Shown here piece by piece: positions 1-24,411 of a DNA stretch of 64,000 nucleotides; within the stretch, counting starts at the first letter, position 1, and every line of letters begins with the position of its first letter. The position numbers were made by a program, and so were the translations under genes. The notes beneath the pieces are model-generated. The model was not told where the DNA came from and made no database searches. It was given only the letters and a program-made list of their open reading frames with translations. This DNA comes from Candidatus Saccharimonadales bacterium (GTDB lineage Bacteria; Patescibacteriota; UBA1384; 2-12-FULL-50-11): the NCBI GenBank assembly GCA_035480235.1, contig DATIHX010000003.1, positions 21,514 through 85,513 of the forward strand, in the 5' to 3' direction.

Positions 1-1215
1 CTCCTCAATCAGTTTTTCGCCTTTCCGAAGGCCCATTACCCGAACTTCTACATCTTGAGTCGGCAACAGGTTCTTGGAGCGAATTAGGCAGAGGGCGACT
101 TCGTAAATATTAATGAGCTCGCCCATATTCAGTACGTGAATCGAATCGGTTTCGCCAGTCGCGGTGCTCTCGATCACTAGTTGAGCTGCCTCGCGAATCG
201 ACATGAAGAAGCGCTCCATTTTTCGGTGGGTGATGGTGACGTAGCGGTGAAGAATAATCTGGCGCTCAAACAACGGCAAAACTGAGCCGTTAGAATTAAT
301 AACGTTACCGAAACGGACGACGTTAAATTTTACTTTGGCTTTATCGAGCGAGTTAATGTAATACTCGCAGAGCTTCTTGGTGGCGCCCATCACACTGGTC
401 GGATTAACTACTTTATCGGTGGAGATAAAGGTTTGGAGCAGGATATTGTTCTTAATGGCCGCGTCGATCGCCCGTTTGGTACCGATGACGTTGTTATGGA
501 CCGACTCGTCGATATTGTCCTGCATCAAATGAACGTGTTTATAGGCGGCGGCGTGAAATACAATGTCCGGTTTGATGGTTTTAAATAGGTGGTCAAGCTT
601 ATCGTCATTTAAAATACTGCCAATAATGAGGTCGCAACGATCACGCTGACCGCGCTCTTTGAGCTGCTGCTCCAGCATAAAAATCAGATACTCCGAGTTG
701 TCGTAAACAACGACTTTTTTCACCTCCAAATCGACCAGCTGCCGAACGATCTCCGAACCGATCGACCCGGCCCCACCCGTCACAAAAACCGTTTTGTCTC
801 GGTAATAGCGCTTCAGCCGATCAACGTTGTTCCGAACGAACGGTCGGCCTAAAAAATCTTCTGGTTGGATGTCTTTCACTTCTTCGTAGCGGACCAAGCT
901 TTTACTGATAACCCGCTGGCTCCGGGGAACAATCCGGATCGGCAGGCGGTTGGTGAGATTGGCCAAAAGAATCGTCCGAATTAGTTTGCCGTCGGCTGAC
1001 GGGACAGCGATAACGATTTCGTCAACAGCGTACTTGTTAACCACTTTTTGGCAATCGCTGATTTTCCCCAAAATTGGTAATTTCGCCTCTTTAATATTGT
1101 CGTCTAAAAAGCCGATCACCTGATACGACCGGTAATTCTTGGCGATATCTCGGCTTAATAGCTGGCCAGCGTCACCCGCCCCAATAATTAAAATGCTTTT
1201 TTCAATTCTCGCCAT
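1..1215 (-). CDS. Polysaccharide biosynthesis protein, CapD/PglF-like NDP-sugar 4,6-dehydratase (C-terminus cut by window edge)
   Basis: Own translation of the minus strand from ATG (1215..1213): MARIEKSILIIGAGDAGQ..., second Rossmann motif VFVTGGAGSIGSE, AAAYKHV motif. The frame stays open to position 1. ATGA overlap with the next gene. Confidence 0.75.
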   Translation of the reverse strand, partial: MARIEKSILIIGAGDAGQLLSRDIAKNYRSYQVIGFLDDNIKEAKLPILGKISDCQKVVNKYAVDEIVIAVPSADGKLIRTILLANLTNRLPIRIVPRSQRVISKSLVRYEEVKDIQPEDFLGRPFVRNNVDRLKRYYRDKTVFVTGGAGSIGSEIVRQLVDLEVKKVVVYDNSEYLIFMLEQQLKERGQRDRCDLIIGSILNDDKLDHLFKTIKPDIVFHAAAYKHVHLMQDNIDESVHNNVIGTKRAIDAAIKNNILLQTFISTDKVVNPTSVMGATKKLCEYYINSLDKAKVKFNVVRFGNVINSNGSVLPLFERQIILHRYVTITHRKMERFFMSIREAAQLVIESTATGETDSIHVLNMGELINIYEVALCLIRSKNLLPTQDVEVRVMGLRKGEKLIEE

Positions 1216-2471: not shown

Positions 2472-3157
2472 CAGCCGGTTACCGCCCGATAAAATAATCG
2501 CAAGAAAATGTTGAGACCGTTCAGCGGGTTTTGACCTTGGCGACCGTCAAAATAAATCGTTTTAATTGGTACTTCACTGATCAGCAAACCATGGCGTTTA
2601 GCACCAATAATCATCTCCGAACAAAATTCGTAACCGGTCATGTTAAACTCATCAATAACTGAGAGCATCCGTTCGCCGATCAGCCGAAAGCCTGATTGGG
2701 AGTCGGAAACCTGTTTACCGCTGAAGGTAAACGTGATGCCGTTCATAATTTTGTTGCCGTACCACTTCAGAGCTGGCATCGTTTCGATGGTTTGCGAGAG
2801 AAAGCGGCTGCCTATAATTAAATCGGCCTTGTCTCGAAAATGGGCGTCAACAAGGGCGTGGATATCGTCGGGATCGTGTTGGCCGTCACCGTCCAGCGTC
2901 ACCACCAAGGCATTACCTAGTTGTCGAGCCGCCTTGATGCCAGTTAAAACGGCCCCGCCTTGGCCAATATTAATTCGGTGGCTCAAGACCAGCGCGCCCG
3001 CTTTTTTCGCTCGAGCGGCAGTTCGGTCGATTGAAGCGTCGTTGATCACTATTCGATTGATCGTACTAATCCCGTCAATCCGCCGAGGGATGCCATCAAT
3101 AACATCGCCGATAGTTTTTTCTTCATTGTGAGCTGGGACGACAACAGCCAAACGCAT
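2471..3157 (-). CDS. Glycosyltransferase family 2 (polyprenyl-phosphate sugar synthase-like)
   Basis: VVVPAHNEE...INDASIDRT...TLDGDGQHDP (DXD-type motif). 228 aa. Confidence 0.85.
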   Translation of the reverse strand: MRLAVVVPAHNEEKTIGDVIDGIPRRIDGISTINRIVINDASIDRTAARAKKAGALVLSHRINIGQGGAVLTGIKAARQLGNALVVTLDGDGQHDPDDIHALVDAHFRDKADLIIGSRFLSQTIETMPALKWYGNKIMNGITFTFSGKQVSDSQSGFRLIGERMLSVIDEFNMTGYEFCSEMIIGAKRHGLLISEVPIKTIYFDGRQGQNPLNGLNIFLRLFYRAVTG

Positions 3158-3225
3158 GAGTGAAAAGTACCATAAACCGAACCAAGAAGAAAGGCCGGAC
3201 CGGTCAGCTCGATTCGGCTTGATGC

Positions 3226-4362: not shown

Positions 4363-5666
4363 CAGTTCACCTCGGTGGGAGCAGTGAAACTAACTAAAAT
4401 TCCCGCAAAAAGCAGCCAGTAAATCAGTAGCTGGGGGTAGAGCAGCGAGTTCACAAAGGTGGCGTCGATCCCCAGCGCCAACAGCCCGAAGCCAAAACCG
4501 GCTCGCCAGGCCAAATTCGGGTCGGCGAGAGCTTTTCTGCTAACGAGCAAGCTGCGCCGCAACAATTGCCAGGCAAAAACAAGGAAAACCCCCAGACCGA
4601 TAAGGCCCGTTGTCGCCCAAATATCGAGCAAGCTGCTATCCGAGGCCTGAGCGGCGCCGCTGGCGGCGTCGCCCGCTTTCCGGCCACCGGTTTGGACACT
4701 GGCTGGTCCGAAATTGTTATAGCCAACTCCGTAAAACGGCGAACTTTTAATCACCGCGATAGCCCGTTTCCAGGATAGAATTCGTTGAGCGCCGGTATCT
4801 TGGTCGCCCGAAACTAAGCTAACAATTTTCTTCCCATTTTTATCGGTGATTGTTTCCACTTTGGTGGAAGTAAAGATGCTAATAAACCGGCTACCGGCTC
4901 GGCCCGGCAAAAACATTACCACCGCGAAGATGGCGGCAATGAGGAGCCCGATTTTCCAGTTTTTCCGTAGCCCTAATAAAACCATAGCGATGCCAACGCT
5001 AATGACGCCGCTCCGGGAGAAAGTTAGATAGAGAGCTACCAGTAGAATGAGCCCGAGAGGGTAGTACCACTTCCGCTGATTTTGGCCGCCAAAAAGGATT
5101 TCGGCCGTGGCGCCGATCAACCCTAACCCAAGGTAGATTGCTACAAAGTTCGGATCGTAAAAAGTGGAAAGCAGCCGACCGACGTGGGGATCCCAGCCGA
5201 AAGTAGTCATAAACCGAAAATCGCCAAAAAGCCCGAGCTGAACAAAGCCCAGTACAGCCACGATGACCGCCGACCAGACAAAATACCGCTTCCAAGTGGT
5301 TGGGTCGAGCCGCCGGCCCCAACTCCGGGCCACCCAATAGAGCATTAAGTAGCCTTCGAGGCGCAGTAGATAACCGAAGCCCGTCAGCAGATCGTGGTGG
5401 GTAAACCGGCCGAAATTCAGCAAAAAAGTGATCGGCAGAATAATTTGGAAGGCTAAAAAGAGTTTATCAGCCAGCTGAAGCTGAGCGGTTGGTAGTTTTC
5501 GGGTAATCAGCCAGCGGTAAGCGCTCATTACTAGCCAGCCGATAGTAACGCCTGCCATGACGATATCGGCGGCCCGAAGAGCCAGGTCACTGCCCGGCCG
5601 GATCGGTAGCCGGAAAATTTGGCCGATAACAATCGCCAAGAGCAACCCAATATACGTCAACGTCAT
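4362..5666 (-). CDS. O-antigen ligase/polymerase family membrane protein
   Basis: 434 aa, polytopic. LTFSRSGVISVGIAMVLL motif followed by an extracytoplasmic loop. Shares its boundary nucleotide (4362) with the downstream paralog. Confidence 0.6.
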   Translation of the reverse strand: MTLTYIGLLLAIVIGQIFRLPIRPGSDLALRAADIVMAGVTIGWLVMSAYRWLITRKLPTAQLQLADKLFLAFQIILPITFLLNFGRFTHHDLLTGFGYLLRLEGYLMLYWVARSWGRRLDPTTWKRYFVWSAVIVAVLGFVQLGLFGDFRFMTTFGWDPHVGRLLSTFYDPNFVAIYLGLGLIGATAEILFGGQNQRKWYYPLGLILLVALYLTFSRSGVISVGIAMVLLGLRKNWKIGLLIAAIFAVVMFLPGRAGSRFISIFTSTKVETITDKNGKKIVSLVSGDQDTGAQRILSWKRAIAVIKSSPFYGVGYNNFGPASVQTGGRKAGDAASGAAQASDSSLLDIWATTGLIGLGVFLVFAWQLLRRSLLVSRKALADPNLAWRAGFGFGLLALGIDATFVNSLLYPQLLIYWLLFAGILVSFTAPTEVN

Positions 5667-14737: not shown

Positions 14738-14772
14738 TGATTTTTAGCATAGCAGAAAAGTCAAGTTCGTCG

Positions 14773-14859
14773 CGGAAGGGCAGGGATTCGAACCCTGGGT
14801 ACCCTTACGGGTACAACACATTAGCAGTGTGCTCCATTCGGCCGCTCTGGCACCCTTCC
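14773..14859 (-). tRNA. tRNA-Ser (anticodon GCT)
   Basis: Reverse complement is GGAAGGG...CTGCTAA loop...long variable arm GTACCC-GTAA-GGGTAC...T-arm CAGGGTTCGAATCCCTG...CCCTTCC-G. No encoded CCA. Confidence 0.9.
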
Positions 14860-15941: not shown

Positions 15942-16029
15942 GGAAGGGTCGCATAGTGGGCCGGTTGCGAATTAGCAATCGGCGGGAAGTAAGCAACTTC
16001 CCAGGGGCCACGCCGACGCACATTTTTTT
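15942..16029 (+). pseudogene. tRNA-Ser-derived fragment / tRNA-like element (no T-arm, no 3' acceptor strand)
   Basis: The first 18 nt, GGAAGGGTCGCATAGTGG, are identical to the 5' end of the tRNA-Ser 112 nt downstream. Next come GCCGGTT...AATCGGC and the hairpin GGGAAGT-AAGCA-ACTTCCC (15984..16002), ending in a T7 run. Confidence 0.45.
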
Positions 16030-16053
16030 GATCGAGACTTTGTCGAGAAATAT

Positions 16054-16143
16054 GGAAGGGTCGCATAGTGGCCTAGTGCGCCGGTTTCGAAAACCGGTTG
16101 GCCCGCAAGGGTCTCGTGGGTTCGACTCCCACCCCTTCCGCCA
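16054..16143 (+). tRNA. tRNA-Ser (anticodon CGA), CCA encoded
   Basis: GGAAGGG...anticodon arm CCGGT-TTCGAAA-ACCGG...long variable arm...GTGGGTTCGACTCCCAC...CCCTTCC-G-CCA. Confidence 0.9.
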
Positions 16144-23124: not shown

Positions 23125-23207
23125 GGAGGGTTGGCAGAATGGTTAATGCACCAGTCTTGAAAACTGGCGGGCGAAAGCCCTTGTAGGTTCGAGCCCTACA
23201 CCCTCCG
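23125..23207 (+). tRNA. tRNA-Ser (anticodon TGA)
   Basis: GGAGGGT...CCAGT-CTTGAAA-ACTGG...variable arm GGGC-GAAA-GCCC...GTAGGTTCGAGCCCTAC...ACCCTCC-G. Confidence 0.85.
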
Positions 23208-23220
23208 CAATTATTAATAG

Positions 23221-23249
23221 TTGACACGGTTGCCCCTACCGTCAATAAT
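23221..23249 (+). promoter_or_regulatory. Sigma-70-type promoter (TTGACA, 17-nt spacer, AATAAT), probably giving a leaderless transcript
   Basis: TTGACA at 23221..23226, -10 at 23244..23249. The ATG at 23256 follows 6 nt later with no SD. Confidence 0.55.
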
Positions 23250-23255
23250 TAAGTT

Positions 23256-23624
23256 ATGAGGACAACCCAAAGAAAGGGAGATATCGCAGTCTCTCAAGCA
23301 ATTGCCACATTCACAAAGTTGGGTCACGATGTTTCACTCCCTATGACTGAATCGGCCGCCTATGATCTTATTGTGGATGTTGGAGGAAAGCTTCAACGAC
23401 TTCAAGTGAGATATACTAGCGCGAACGAGGTTGACCTAAGGAGGGTTCATTCTAACTCTAAAGGTTACGTTGTTAAGAAAACTAAGCCTCAAGCCTATGA
23501 TTGGCTCTACATCCTAAAGAATACTGGGGAGGAATATTTAATCACCAGCTGCCTAATAGGTCGGCGATCAATTGTTCCCAACCCTATAAATCTACTAAAT
23601 AAAGAGGTAAAATTAGTCAGTTAG
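23256..23624 (+). CDS. Small PD-(D/E)XK endonuclease-like protein (group-I-intron-associated endonuclease family-like)
   Basis: 122 aa. RKGDIAVSQAIATFTKLGHDVSLPM...YDLIVD...RLQVRY pattern matches my recollection of this family. The last motif has R where K is usual. Confidence 0.55.
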   Translation: MRTTQRKGDIAVSQAIATFTKLGHDVSLPMTESAAYDLIVDVGGKLQRLQVRYTSANEVDLRRVHSNSKGYVVKKTKPQAYDWLYILKNTGEEYLITSCLIGRRSIVPNPINLLNKEVKLVS

Positions 23625-23627
23625 TGC

Positions 23628-23700
23628 GCGCCCGTAGCTCAGCGGATAGAGCGTTCGGTTGCGGTCCGAAAGGTCGCTGGTTCGATTCCAGCCGGGCGCA
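23628..23700 (+). tRNA. tRNA-Arg (anticodon GCG)
   Basis: GCGCCCG-TA-GCTCAGCGGATAGAGC-G-TTCGG-TTGCGGT-CCGAA...GCTGGTTCGATTCCAGC-CGGGCGC-A. Confidence 0.85.
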
Positions 23701-23722
23701 CGAAGTGGTTTGATTTTTATTA

Positions 23723-23814
23723 GCGCCCGTAGCTCAGTGGATCAAATCAGGTTTTTGTCCCCTGCGCCACTGGCACTCAGCCAGTTATTGTTTGCCTACG
23801 CTAGTGTAGGCCTC
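23723..23814 (+). pseudogene. Truncated tRNA-Arg 5' copy (23 nt) plus a unique tail
   Basis: Starts GCGCCCGTAGCTCAGTGGATCAA, then hairpin GGA(T)CAAA-TCAGGTT-TTTGTCC. No T-arm or 3' acceptor strand. Further hairpins: ACTGGC/GCCAGT and CCTAC/GTAGG. Confidence 0.5.
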
Positions 23815-23896
23815 GCGCCCGTAGCTCAGTGGATCAAGTTGGTAATCCTTGTCCCCTTCGCTCCGTTCGCTGCATTGTTCGCTTCGCTCACAATTT
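23815..23896 (+). pseudogene. Truncated tRNA-Arg 5' copy (23 nt) plus a unique tail
   Basis: Starts GCGCCCGTAGCTCAGTGGATCAA, then hairpin GGA(T)CAAG-TTGGTAATC-CTTGTCC, which carries a compensatory change relative to the previous copy. The tail contains four TTCGCT motifs. Confidence 0.5.
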
Positions 23897-23969
23897 GCGC
23901 CCGTAGCTCAGTGGATAGAGTATTGGTTTCCGGAACCAAGGGTCGGTGGTTCGAGTCCACCCGGGCGCA
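23897..23969 (+). tRNA. tRNA-Arg (anticodon CCG)
   Basis: GCGCCCG-TA-GCTCAGTGGATAGAGT-A-TTGGT-TTCCGGA-ACCAA...GGTGGTTCGAGTCCACC-CGGGCGC-A. Confidence 0.9.
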
Positions 23970-24125
23970 CAAAAAGAGAATCTCTAACCTGATCCCATTT
24001 CGCGAAGCAATAGCGGAGCGAATGTAAATGTAAAATACATTTCTCATGTGAGAGGGCCCGTAGAGTTAGTTTTCCTAAACGTCGTTATCGGCGCAAATAA
24101 CATAGCGTGCGCGCAACAAAATTTG

Positions 24126-24156
24126 ACAAAAAAGAAGTCCCGCTGGAAGCGGGACT
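24126..24156 (-). terminator. Rho-independent terminator of the small minus-strand gene
   Basis: AGTCCCGC (24136..24143) pairs with GCGGGACT (24149..24156). On the minus strand it is followed by CTTCTTTTTTGT. Confidence 0.7.
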
Positions 24157-24177
24157 CTGCGAGCGATCGGATACGGG

Positions 24178-24411
24178 CTAAGTTTCGGGGTTGGACTTCA
24201 GCAAACCAAAGATCGATTCATAGCCTTCTTTGATCAGAATGGCGCGGATCTGGTCCCTGACCTCTGGGTTTTGGGTGGCCTGTCGTAGCTCCTCTTTCGC
24301 TTCAGGTGTTAGTCCGCATCCGGATTCGTACGCAACGATAATCGCCAACACCCACTCCTCGGCCGTTAATGATTCCGGGTCAACCGGTCCATCACTGGAC
24401 ATTTTGTTCAC
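24178..24411 (-). CDS. Hypothetical small acidic protein (77 aa)
   Basis: The ORF has a terminator immediately downstream. No family recognised. Confidence 0.45.
   Translation of the reverse strand: MNKMSSDGPVDPESLTAEEWVLAIIVAYESGCGLTPEAKEELRQATQNPEVRDQIRAILIKEGYESIFGLLKSNPET

Follow-up and report, generated by a model that had tools for sequence, protein, structure and literature searches.

Conserved hairpin units that begin with the 5′ end of the neighbouring tRNA-Arg gene in Saccharimonadales, and their possible role as structured leader modules

Why should two truncated copies of a tRNA gene lie between two intact ones, and are they debris or something that is maintained? The question is raised by a tRNA block in a stretch of 64,000 nt from a Candidatus Saccharimonadales bacterium (contig DATIHX010000003.1; the whole stretch is referred to below as the window), where the genes follow each other in the order hsp20, comF, tRNA genes, yidC, yidD, rnpA, rpmH and dnaA. 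The YidC encoded there is 100% identical to a protein from an NCBI metagenome-assembled genome of Candidatus Saccharimonadales. The 20-mer GCGCCCGTAGCTCAGTGGAT, with which tRNA-Arg(CCG) begins, is present exactly at 23723, 23815 and 23897 and with one mismatch at 23628, while none is expected (100 shuffles). The first and last of the four copies open complete tRNA-Arg genes, with anticodons GCG and CCG, according to both ARAGORN and Rfam. The two copies in between, here called U2 and U3, are identical over their first 23 nt and then diverge, and no tRNA is called at either of them by ARAGORN, nor by Rfam even at E<=10. All of this agrees with an original prediction made for the locus, as do the hairpins that follow the fragment in both units, with CAAA/TTTG in one stem and CAAG/CTTG in the other, and the CCCT(G/T)CGC that comes right after the hairpin core. 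The same prediction held that the structure is maintained rather than decaying, and it considered a tRNA-derived RNA family, scars of recombination at the tRNA 5′ end, and decoy or target sites for an adjacent endonuclease. Related genomes uphold the first of these statements: judged by sequence comparison, U2 and U3 are conserved structured elements and not random pseudogene debris. Several points go beyond what had been predicted, namely an antisense copy of the fragment in each unit, the tracking of the downstream tRNA by the 20-mer, and analogous modules at tRNA-Ser genes.

The unit U2 is made up of tRNA nt 1–20, a hairpin (hp1), an antisense segment, two further hairpins (hp2 and hp3) and a 3-nt tail, and U3 of tRNA nt 1–20, hp1, a pyrimidine-rich antisense segment, a terminal hairpin ATTGT..ACAAT (23874–23894) and TT. 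The hp1 core of U2, GGA(T)CAAA/TTTGTCC at 23739–23760, is extended by TCAG/CTG(C), so that nt 12–20 of the fragment make up one arm of the hairpin. There is no full cloverleaf in U2 or U3, tRNA identity being restricted to nt 1–20. When the whole window was searched with Rfam at gathering thresholds, and 23200–24200 at E<=10, no ribozyme, riboswitch, T-box or RtT element was found; besides the two tRNAs the latter search returned chance-level matches to YrlA and to permuted transfer-messenger RNA (E = 0.25–0.9). No further copy of the inserts was found elsewhere in the window, including by a search with a covariance model of the units. Within U3 a short internal repeat, TTGTYCSCTTCGCTC, with the motif TCGCT occurring four times, occupies 23849–23889 and overlaps the antisense segment in part.

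Homologous units are present in at least eight other genomes, always immediately upstream of an intact tRNA-Arg gene with anticodon GCG, CCG or TCG. A scan of 185,579 species genomes with a 21-mer spanning the junction gave a single match, a metagenome-assembled genome of Saccharibacteria (L001; loci of other genomes carry L numbers) in which tRNA-Arg(TCG) is preceded by two truncated copies. A 19-mer pattern scan of metagenomes yielded true units only in L011/L015, with one unit before tRNA-Arg(GCG); the remaining matches were mostly ordinary tRNAs with a GGATCAAGAGC D-loop. Syntenic loci were also gathered through homologs of ComF and YidC, that is without selecting for the unit, and among these L025, L026/L158, L027, L144 and L150 carry one and L146 a divergent one, while L142/L149, L151 and L157 carry none. 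In the loci found by synteny only, six of the 11 tRNA-Arg genes have a unit, which is the unbiased figure. There are one or two units per locus, placed between tRNA genes of one block, and the YidC proteins of the unit-bearing genomes are just 55–70% identical. Since the same unit sequences were recovered in independent assemblies (L011 = L015, L027 = L028 = L029, L144 = L145), the units are not an assembly artefact.

The units fall into two families. Type I has hp1, CCCTGA.., hp2 (ACTGGC-ACTNA-GCCAGT) and hp3 (GCCTAC..GTAGGC), and comprises U2, copy B of L001 and the units of L011, L027 and L144. Type II has hp1, CCCCTTCGCTCC and a 3′ tail, and comprises U3 and the units of L025, L026 and L150; the 12 nt of CCCCTTCGCTCC are unchanged in all four. 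The window thus holds one unit of each type in tandem. The type does not depend on the isoacceptor, as type II precedes both GCG (L025, L150) and CCG genes (L026, window) and type I is found before GCG, TCG or another unit. Copy A of L001 (2114–2210, minus strand) has C16 in its 20-mer and an insertion of 28 nt before a GGATCAA..TTGTCC hairpin, and in spite of the insertion it folds into a long hairpin of fragment and antisense copy (z = -3.3). Perhaps it represents a unit of a third type, perhaps the result of a nested rearrangement.

In the window itself the covariation consists of a single compensatory pair, so that the argument becomes strong only once relatives are included, and the two hp1 hairpins taken alone are thermodynamically unremarkable (z = -1.2 and -0.3). 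The alignment of related loci, which the original prediction had named as the check on covariation, comprised nine units from eight genomes. In these hp1 has seven pairs, with 95.2% of the cells paired and double-sided changes at three of the seven, for example from CAAG/CTTG to CGCG/CGCG in L144. For covariation hp1 scores 0.27; shuffles give 0.08, none of the 500 attaining the observed value, and sliding the pairing partners gives no more than 0.14. L150 holds its hp1 in a shifted register (GGATG..CATCC). When the five type I units are aligned by hand, the RNAalifold consensus contains hp1, lengthened by TCAG/CTGA, together with hp2 and hp3. In hp2 of L011 there is a compensatory change from T-A to C-G together with a G-U pair, and in hp3 of L144 a U-G pair. 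Mean pairwise identity among the type I units is 83–100% in the stems and 21–41%, i.e., at the random level, in loops and linkers; the free positions are therefore saturated while the stems have been held. Whole units of L027 and L144 fold with z of -4.2 and -5.3, and those of L150 and U2 with -2.2. A covariance model gives 53–74 bits to the nine units, 29 to copy A of L001 and 15–24 to true tRNAs. The units thereby show what is generally looked for in a structured RNA, compensatory changes in the helices and stems better conserved than loops.

The fragment at the head of each unit starts exactly at tRNA +1, with mutually unrelated flanks upstream, and ends in the D-loop. It carries the same acceptor and D-loop variants as the tRNA just downstream, such as GCGCTCG in L025, L146 and L150, GCGCCTG in L027 and C16 in L150. 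The unit of L026 reads GCGCCCG like the CCG tRNA that follows it, and the GCG tRNA 30 nt upstream has GCGCTCG. In the window tRNA-Arg(GCG), which has no unit upstream, has C16 in its 5′ end and the units have T16. Each of the nine units also holds a second, degenerate copy of the fragment, in antisense: of the 19 nt that follow the inner stem of hp1, 12–15 agree with the reverse complement of fragment nt 1–19 in a gapless register, and chance would give about 5 of 19. The locus is accordingly read as sense 1–20, antisense 19–1, tail, and sense tRNA. A short palindromic spacer separates the sense and antisense copies, one or two more hairpins come after the antisense copy, and the module reaches up to +1 of the intact tRNA. 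For the type II units, L144 and copy A of L001 the predicted fold is one long imperfect hairpin that begins at G1 of the fragment. Boxes resembling a -10 element lie 10–16 nt upstream of the units in L025 and L001, and in L150 a TATAAT box stands upstream of the unit, which is placed between tRNA-Ser and tRNA-Arg.

Modules of an analogous kind are found at tRNA-Ser genes. In the window one such module lies directly upstream of tRNA-Ser(CGA) (gene at 16054–16143); in L158 the orthologous site (4337) is empty and the gene is intact. The promoter-proximal GTAGAATTATTAGGTTT runs directly into the tRNA-Ser(CGA) fragment in the window, and in L158 into the tRNA itself, which is intact there. L158 has an insert of its own at tRNA-Ser(GCT) (2923–3184, minus strand), which is homologous to the insert at Ser(CGA) of the window (score 56, shuffle maximum 37), bears its own 18-mer and folds with z = -4.9. 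The same L158 gene has a 50-nt perfect minihelix of acceptor and T-stem 7 nt downstream, and the window tRNA-Ser(GCT) (14772–14859, minus strand) has neither a 5′ module nor a minihelix. In several relatives tRNA-Ser trailers form a minihelix that ends in an exact copy of the 3′ strands of T-stem and acceptor, and this copy covaries with the local tRNA. The trailer of tRNA-Ser(TGA) is conserved and runs from a hairpin GCCG..CGGC through a purine-rich pseudo-acceptor strand, GGATC and a variable loop to the exact T-stem/acceptor copy; it is absent from the window, L026 and L144. When one criterion was applied throughout, a 5′ fragment was seen at 11 of 31 tRNAs in Saccharimonadales loci and at none of about 182 in unrelated loci, where the single apparent match was an artefact at a locus end; the former figure is inflated, as three of the loci behind it had been picked up by way of the unit. 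The features are collected in Table 1.

Table 1. Features of the tRNA block and of the tRNA-Ser modules. Positions refer to the window unless another locus is named.
Feature	Position	Strand	Remarks and evidence
Unit U2, type I, 92 nt	23723..23814	+	covariance model 65 bits; homologs in L001, L011, L027, L144
U2 5′ fragment	23723..23742	+	exact nt 1-20 of the downstream tRNA-Arg(CCG)
U2 hairpin hp1	23734..23765	+	minimum free energy (MFE) fold, RNAalifold consensus, pair counts
U2 antisense segment TCCCCTGCGCCACTGGCAC	23758..23776	+	14/19 identity to reverse complement of fragment nt 1-19
U2 hairpin hp2, ACTGGC-ACTCA-GCCAGT, 17 nt	23769..23785	+	at the would-be T-arm position
U2 hairpin hp3, GCCTAC-GCTAGT-GTAGGC	23794..23811	+	stem conserved, loop varies freely
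Unit U3, type II, 82 nt	23815..23896	+	covariance model 68.9 bits; homologs in L025, L026/L158, L150
U3 hp1 core, GGA(T)CAAG-TTGGTAATC-CTTGTCC	23831..23854	+	
U3 antisense segment TCCCCTTCGCTCCGTTCGC	23852..23870	+	13/19 identity to reverse complement of fragment
tRNA-Ser(TGA)	23125..23208	+	first gene of the tRNA block; ARAGORN and Rfam
PD-(D/E)XK endonuclease open reading frame (PDDEXK_5), free-standing	23256..23624	+	Pfam PF11645, E = 6e-16
tRNA-Arg(GCG), intact	23628..23701	+	ARAGORN; Rfam RF00005, 69.7 bits
AT-rich spacer, 21 nt, tRNA-Arg(GCG) to U2	23702..23722	+	sequence
tRNA-Arg(CCG), intact	23897..23970	+	5′ end is the source copied by U2 and U3; ARAGORN; Rfam, 68 bits
tRNA-Ser(CGA) module, exact nt 1-18 copy and 94-nt structured insert	15942..16053	+	fold z = -3.7
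tRNA-Ser(TGA) trailer, L011	5195-5275		
tRNA-Ser(TGA) trailer, L027	5092-5166		
tRNA-Ser(TGA) trailer, L025	~1145-1200		
tRNA-Ser(TGA) trailer, L142	1599-1654		
tRNA-Ser(TGA) trailer, L146	between 4031 and 3945	-	

What then are the units? We see about an even chance that U2 and U3 are conserved, co-transcribed structured leader modules, and as such the 5′-end counterpart of the tRNA-linked repeats (TLRs) of E. coli. Of the latter there are 22, spread over ten loci of tRNA or rRNA operons with between one and five at each, and the last 18–19 bp of every element repeat the 3′ end of the gene that immediately precedes it; little is known of what they do, three are processed small RNAs, and one proposal is that the repeat attracts the RNase which processes the neighbouring RNA (PMC8144298, where Egan and Landy, 1978, and Rudd, 1999, are summarised). 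The units resemble them in lying inside a tRNA block beside a stable-RNA gene, with one to several per locus. They differ in that the 5′ 20 nt equal the 5′ end of the downstream gene, the mirror image of the E. coli arrangement, and in having an antisense copy that forms a hairpin with the repeat; moreover, they are found in Patescibacteria, their sequences show no resemblance to the E. coli elements, and RtT was not matched in Rfam. The tRNA-Ser 3′ minihelix trailers of the relatives fit the original TLR definition directly. These trailers, as mimics of acceptor and T-stem, also resemble the t-elements of plant mitochondria, tRNA-like stem-loops at which cleavage by RNase P or RNase Z defines RNA ends (PMC1920247). 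For the Arg units the t-elements are a second analogue, with differences: t-elements mimic acceptor and T-arm beside mRNAs, and the Arg units have no T-loop and no good 3′ acceptor strand. By analogy, the role of the modules may be comparable to the proposals made for E. coli TLRs and for t-elements, in which the signals that process the stable RNA next door are borrowed.

We infer the transcription, processing, function and origin of the units along the following lines. A module would be transcribed within the precursor of the tRNA operon, from a promoter that otherwise adjoins the tRNA. The sense and antisense copies would pair into a long imperfect stem-loop starting at or near the module's own +1, and this structure would form first. 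RNase P, by cutting at the real tRNA +1, would set the 3′ end of the module and release the leader. The hairpin would be a structured leader or punctuation element, possibly a released small RNA; it may serve as a signal for processing or punctuation, as a protective structure or as the body of a small RNA. As for origin, the layout of direct, inverted and direct copies suggests template switching, and the modules may have arisen by partial duplication with template switching at a tRNA gene (cf. PMC4689423). Recombination between the 20-nt direct repeats, aided by the tRNA-Arg body that the paralogs share, would then shuffle modules among them, build tandem arrays, excise modules cleanly and hold the 20-mer to the sequence of its tRNA. 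It is possibly also the cause of the permuted and inverted tRNA order among relatives. The tRNA-derived RNA family of the original prediction comes closest to this reading: the family is indeed structured, yet its members are more likely leaders or spacers of tRNA operons than separate genes.

A number of observations weigh against the interpretation as leader modules. The type II unit of L025 folds like shuffles (z = -0.3). Nine related sequences provide few independent compensatory events, and quasi-palindrome correction by template switching can yield compensatory changes without selection on an RNA; at hp1 such correction could pass for selection, at hp2 and hp3 it could not. Type I units have a local hairpin, hp2, whose formation competes with pairing by the acceptor part of the fragment, and the stem-loop that starts at +1 is the MFE fold in only about half of the units. 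The energy of the duplex between fragment and insert clearly beats shuffles (p < 0.02) in only four of 13 units, and the identity test is therefore the stronger of the two. The proposed RNA function does not require that the fragment equals the tRNA, an identity which is better explained by recombination. Finally, several relatives have no unit at all, so the units, and any function they have, are dispensable. A purely neutral or selfish origin is a serious alternative. A fold of the whole leader with the tRNA, in which the first fragment pairs with the 3′ strand of the tRNA, was dropped as uninformative as its frequency in the ensemble is only 0.003.

A more far-reaching form of the idea is that Saccharimonadales possess a class of RNAs not described before, "5′ tRNA-linked repeat" RNAs with the first 18–20 nt of the neighbouring tRNA in a sense/antisense hairpin, which are excised from the operon precursor by the enzymes of tRNA maturation, so that tRNA-like punctuation would be a main route of transcript processing in these reduced genomes poor in RNases. 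We regard this as doubtful. The released RNAs could, if so, have activities of their own, for example by imitating 5′ tRNA fragments from a genomic source or by adjusting the maturation of tRNA-Arg and tRNA-Ser as anti-tRNA switches, and a related possibility is a new RNA-templated or template-switch copying of the mature tRNA 5′ end into its own gene. Literature searches for a prior description in Patescibacteria returned only a paper on group I introns in anticodon loops.

Among the competing explanations the one that survives best is that the units are a neutral by-product of template switching or unequal crossing-over at highly transcribed tRNA genes, i.e., functionless partial duplications, direct plus inverted, in which concerted evolution fixes the 20-nt identity and quasi-palindrome correction keeps the arms complementary. 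This is possible, and we give it perhaps a one-in-several standing. It accounts for the layout of direct, inverted and direct copies, an arrangement that tandem inversion duplications in Salmonella also have, for the tracking of the neighbouring tRNA by the fragment, and for the genomes that have no unit; tandem and shuffled units and clean empty orthologous sites fit direct-repeat recombination. The T-arm and acceptor sequences do not differ between the Arg isoacceptor genes of one locus, which points to ongoing gene conversion among these paralogs. Inverted triplications through template switching at replication, by origin-dependent inverted-repeat amplification, are documented (PMC4689423) and likewise hold one segment in direct, inverted and direct order, a likeness of origin only and not of function; such events span kilobases and are recent and unstable, whereas the segment in the units is 20 nt long, ancient and conserved across genera. 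Neutrality has difficulty with the stems, which are held as described while loops and linkers have drifted to saturation across genomes with so distant YidC proteins, and with the invariance of CCCCTTCGCTCC. Neutral sequence between 20-nt direct repeats should also vanish fast from genomes of about 1 Mb. Furthermore, hp2 and hp3 are conserved although they lie outside the palindrome, and they include a compensatory pair as well as sense-strand G-U wobbles.

It is unlikely, to our judgement, that the units are a selfish miniature element which targets the D-loop region of tRNA genes and duplicates nt 1–18 or 1–20 of the target on insertion. The repeat could then have come about as a long target-site duplication or by copying of the mature tRNA 5′ end from an RNA template, and the hairpins could serve mobility rather than the host. 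Orthologous sites that are filled in one genome and empty in another would agree with this, although deletion between direct repeats explains the empty sites equally well. Homologous inserts occur at different tRNA-Ser isoacceptors, each with the local 18-mer (the 18-mers differ at seven positions), one unit type occurs at GCG, CCG and TCG genes, and the duplication starts exactly at the mature +1. On the other hand the insert families have neither terminal inverted repeats nor common ends, as would be shared by the copies of a transposon or a miniature inverted-repeat transposable element, and the direct repeats that flank them always start at tRNA +1. The units are not accompanied by any transposase, integrase or reverse transcriptase; within the 64 kb no copy, and hence no dispersed copy, lies apart from its cognate tRNA, and none was found in viral, phage or plasmid collections.

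The two remaining explanations come from the original prediction and fare much worse. It is very improbable that the units are remnant attachment sites, that is attL-type scars left by elements or prophages which recombined within the 5′ part of tRNA-Arg and brought a replacement 5′ end. The block of identity is bounded by the tRNA 5′ end, as it would be for an element that restores the gene, and a partial tRNA copy does lie beside an intact, restored gene. The fragment is however at the D-loop rather than in the 3′ part of the gene; integration in tRNA genes is reportedly known at three sublocations, the anticodon loop, the T-loop and the 3′ end, and the D-loop is not among them. The repeats are only 57–72 nt apart, likewise in distant genomes, and the sequence in between is structured and its content conserved. 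No attP-like copy turned up in the IMG/VR, phage and plasmid sets: three pattern scans of IMG/VR gave 4, 108 and 3 matches, none with a tRNA 5′ part followed by a hairpin and all of them ordinary tRNAs or chance, and nothing was matched when the insert was compared by blastn with 50,697 phage and 72,556 plasmid records. Nor is there an integrase among the called genes beside any unit. Recombination between the 20-nt repeats probably shuffles the units, a process distinct from the formation of site-specific scars. Serial 5′ partial copies of tRNA-Arg do occur on an unrelated high-GC contig (L012/L018), and in L012 they lie at 2826–2888 and 4937–4971 on the minus strand, 2.1 kb apart, one of 38 nt reaching the anticodon loop and one of 24 nt, each behind the same upstream sequence of about 24 nt and with no intact tRNA in the 5.3 kb examined. 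As the upstream flank is duplicated there too, these copies look like a different phenomenon. Least credible of all is that the units are decoy or target sites for the PD-(D/E)XK homing-type endonuclease, whose reading frame, a PF11645 member, is wedged between tRNA-Ser(TGA) and tRNA-Arg(GCG) and stops 3 nt ahead of the latter, because reading frame and units do not co-occur: tblastn against all compared Saccharimonadales loci matches the window only, and its place is taken in relatives by a tRNA-Ser trailer module and a type I unit. With no Intron_gpI match in Rfam, inserts of 57–72 nt and a free-standing PDDEXK_5 frame, no group I intron or homing unit is detected. The endonuclease is a neighbour outside the module family.

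Simple decay of a tRNA gene does not describe the units either. They are about as long as one tRNA plus a spacer, their first 20 nt are tRNA, and hp2 stands at the T-arm position with a CTGG/CCAG stem like the T-stem of tRNA-Arg(GCG); this position and a 12-nt match to the anticodon arm of tRNA-Ser(CGA) are weak hints toward a tRNA origin. Everything past nt 20 fails tRNA models, however, and local alignment of the insert with the tRNA body is not significant (p = 0.12–0.85), on which ground decayed whole copies were rejected. The non-tRNA part is conserved and structured across genera, unlike that of decaying pseudogenes. An intrinsic terminator was likewise rejected as a general feature: hp2 of U2 was flagged as terminator-like, but the T-tract is not conserved in the homologs. 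A weak fifth copy, suspected at 24054, did not hold up, as there is only AGGGCCCGTAG (24053–24070), which lies 83 nt downstream of tRNA-Arg(CCG), matches the tRNA-Arg 5′ end at 10 of 11 positions, has no hairpin after it and is not found by the covariance model of the units. By our own estimate the local chance expectation of such a match is roughly 1–2%, and it could be a very old decayed copy or chance.

The tRNA block as a whole is variable. Between comF and yidC it is inverted in L011, L144 and L146 relative to the window, and its order is permuted in other relatives (in L025: unit, Arg-GCG, Ser, Arg-CCG). The metagenome contigs L142, L149, L150, L156 and L157 end within or beside the block, which would fit short-read assemblies being broken by the repeated tRNA-Arg 5′ ends.

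The E. coli TLRs have been known since 1978 and are still essentially without an accepted function (PMC8144298). The units described here are a mirror-image 5′ version of them from a far-removed phylum whose genomes are tiny; their helices covary and purifying constraint is clear, and this suggests that borrowing the end of a neighbouring tRNA is a recurrent and probably useful design. They offer a compact system for testing what such repeats do. For annotation it matters that the units resemble truncated tRNA genes and that they appear to break metagenome assemblies in tRNA blocks, and the 20-nt repeats may account for the variable order and orientation of tRNA genes between close relatives.

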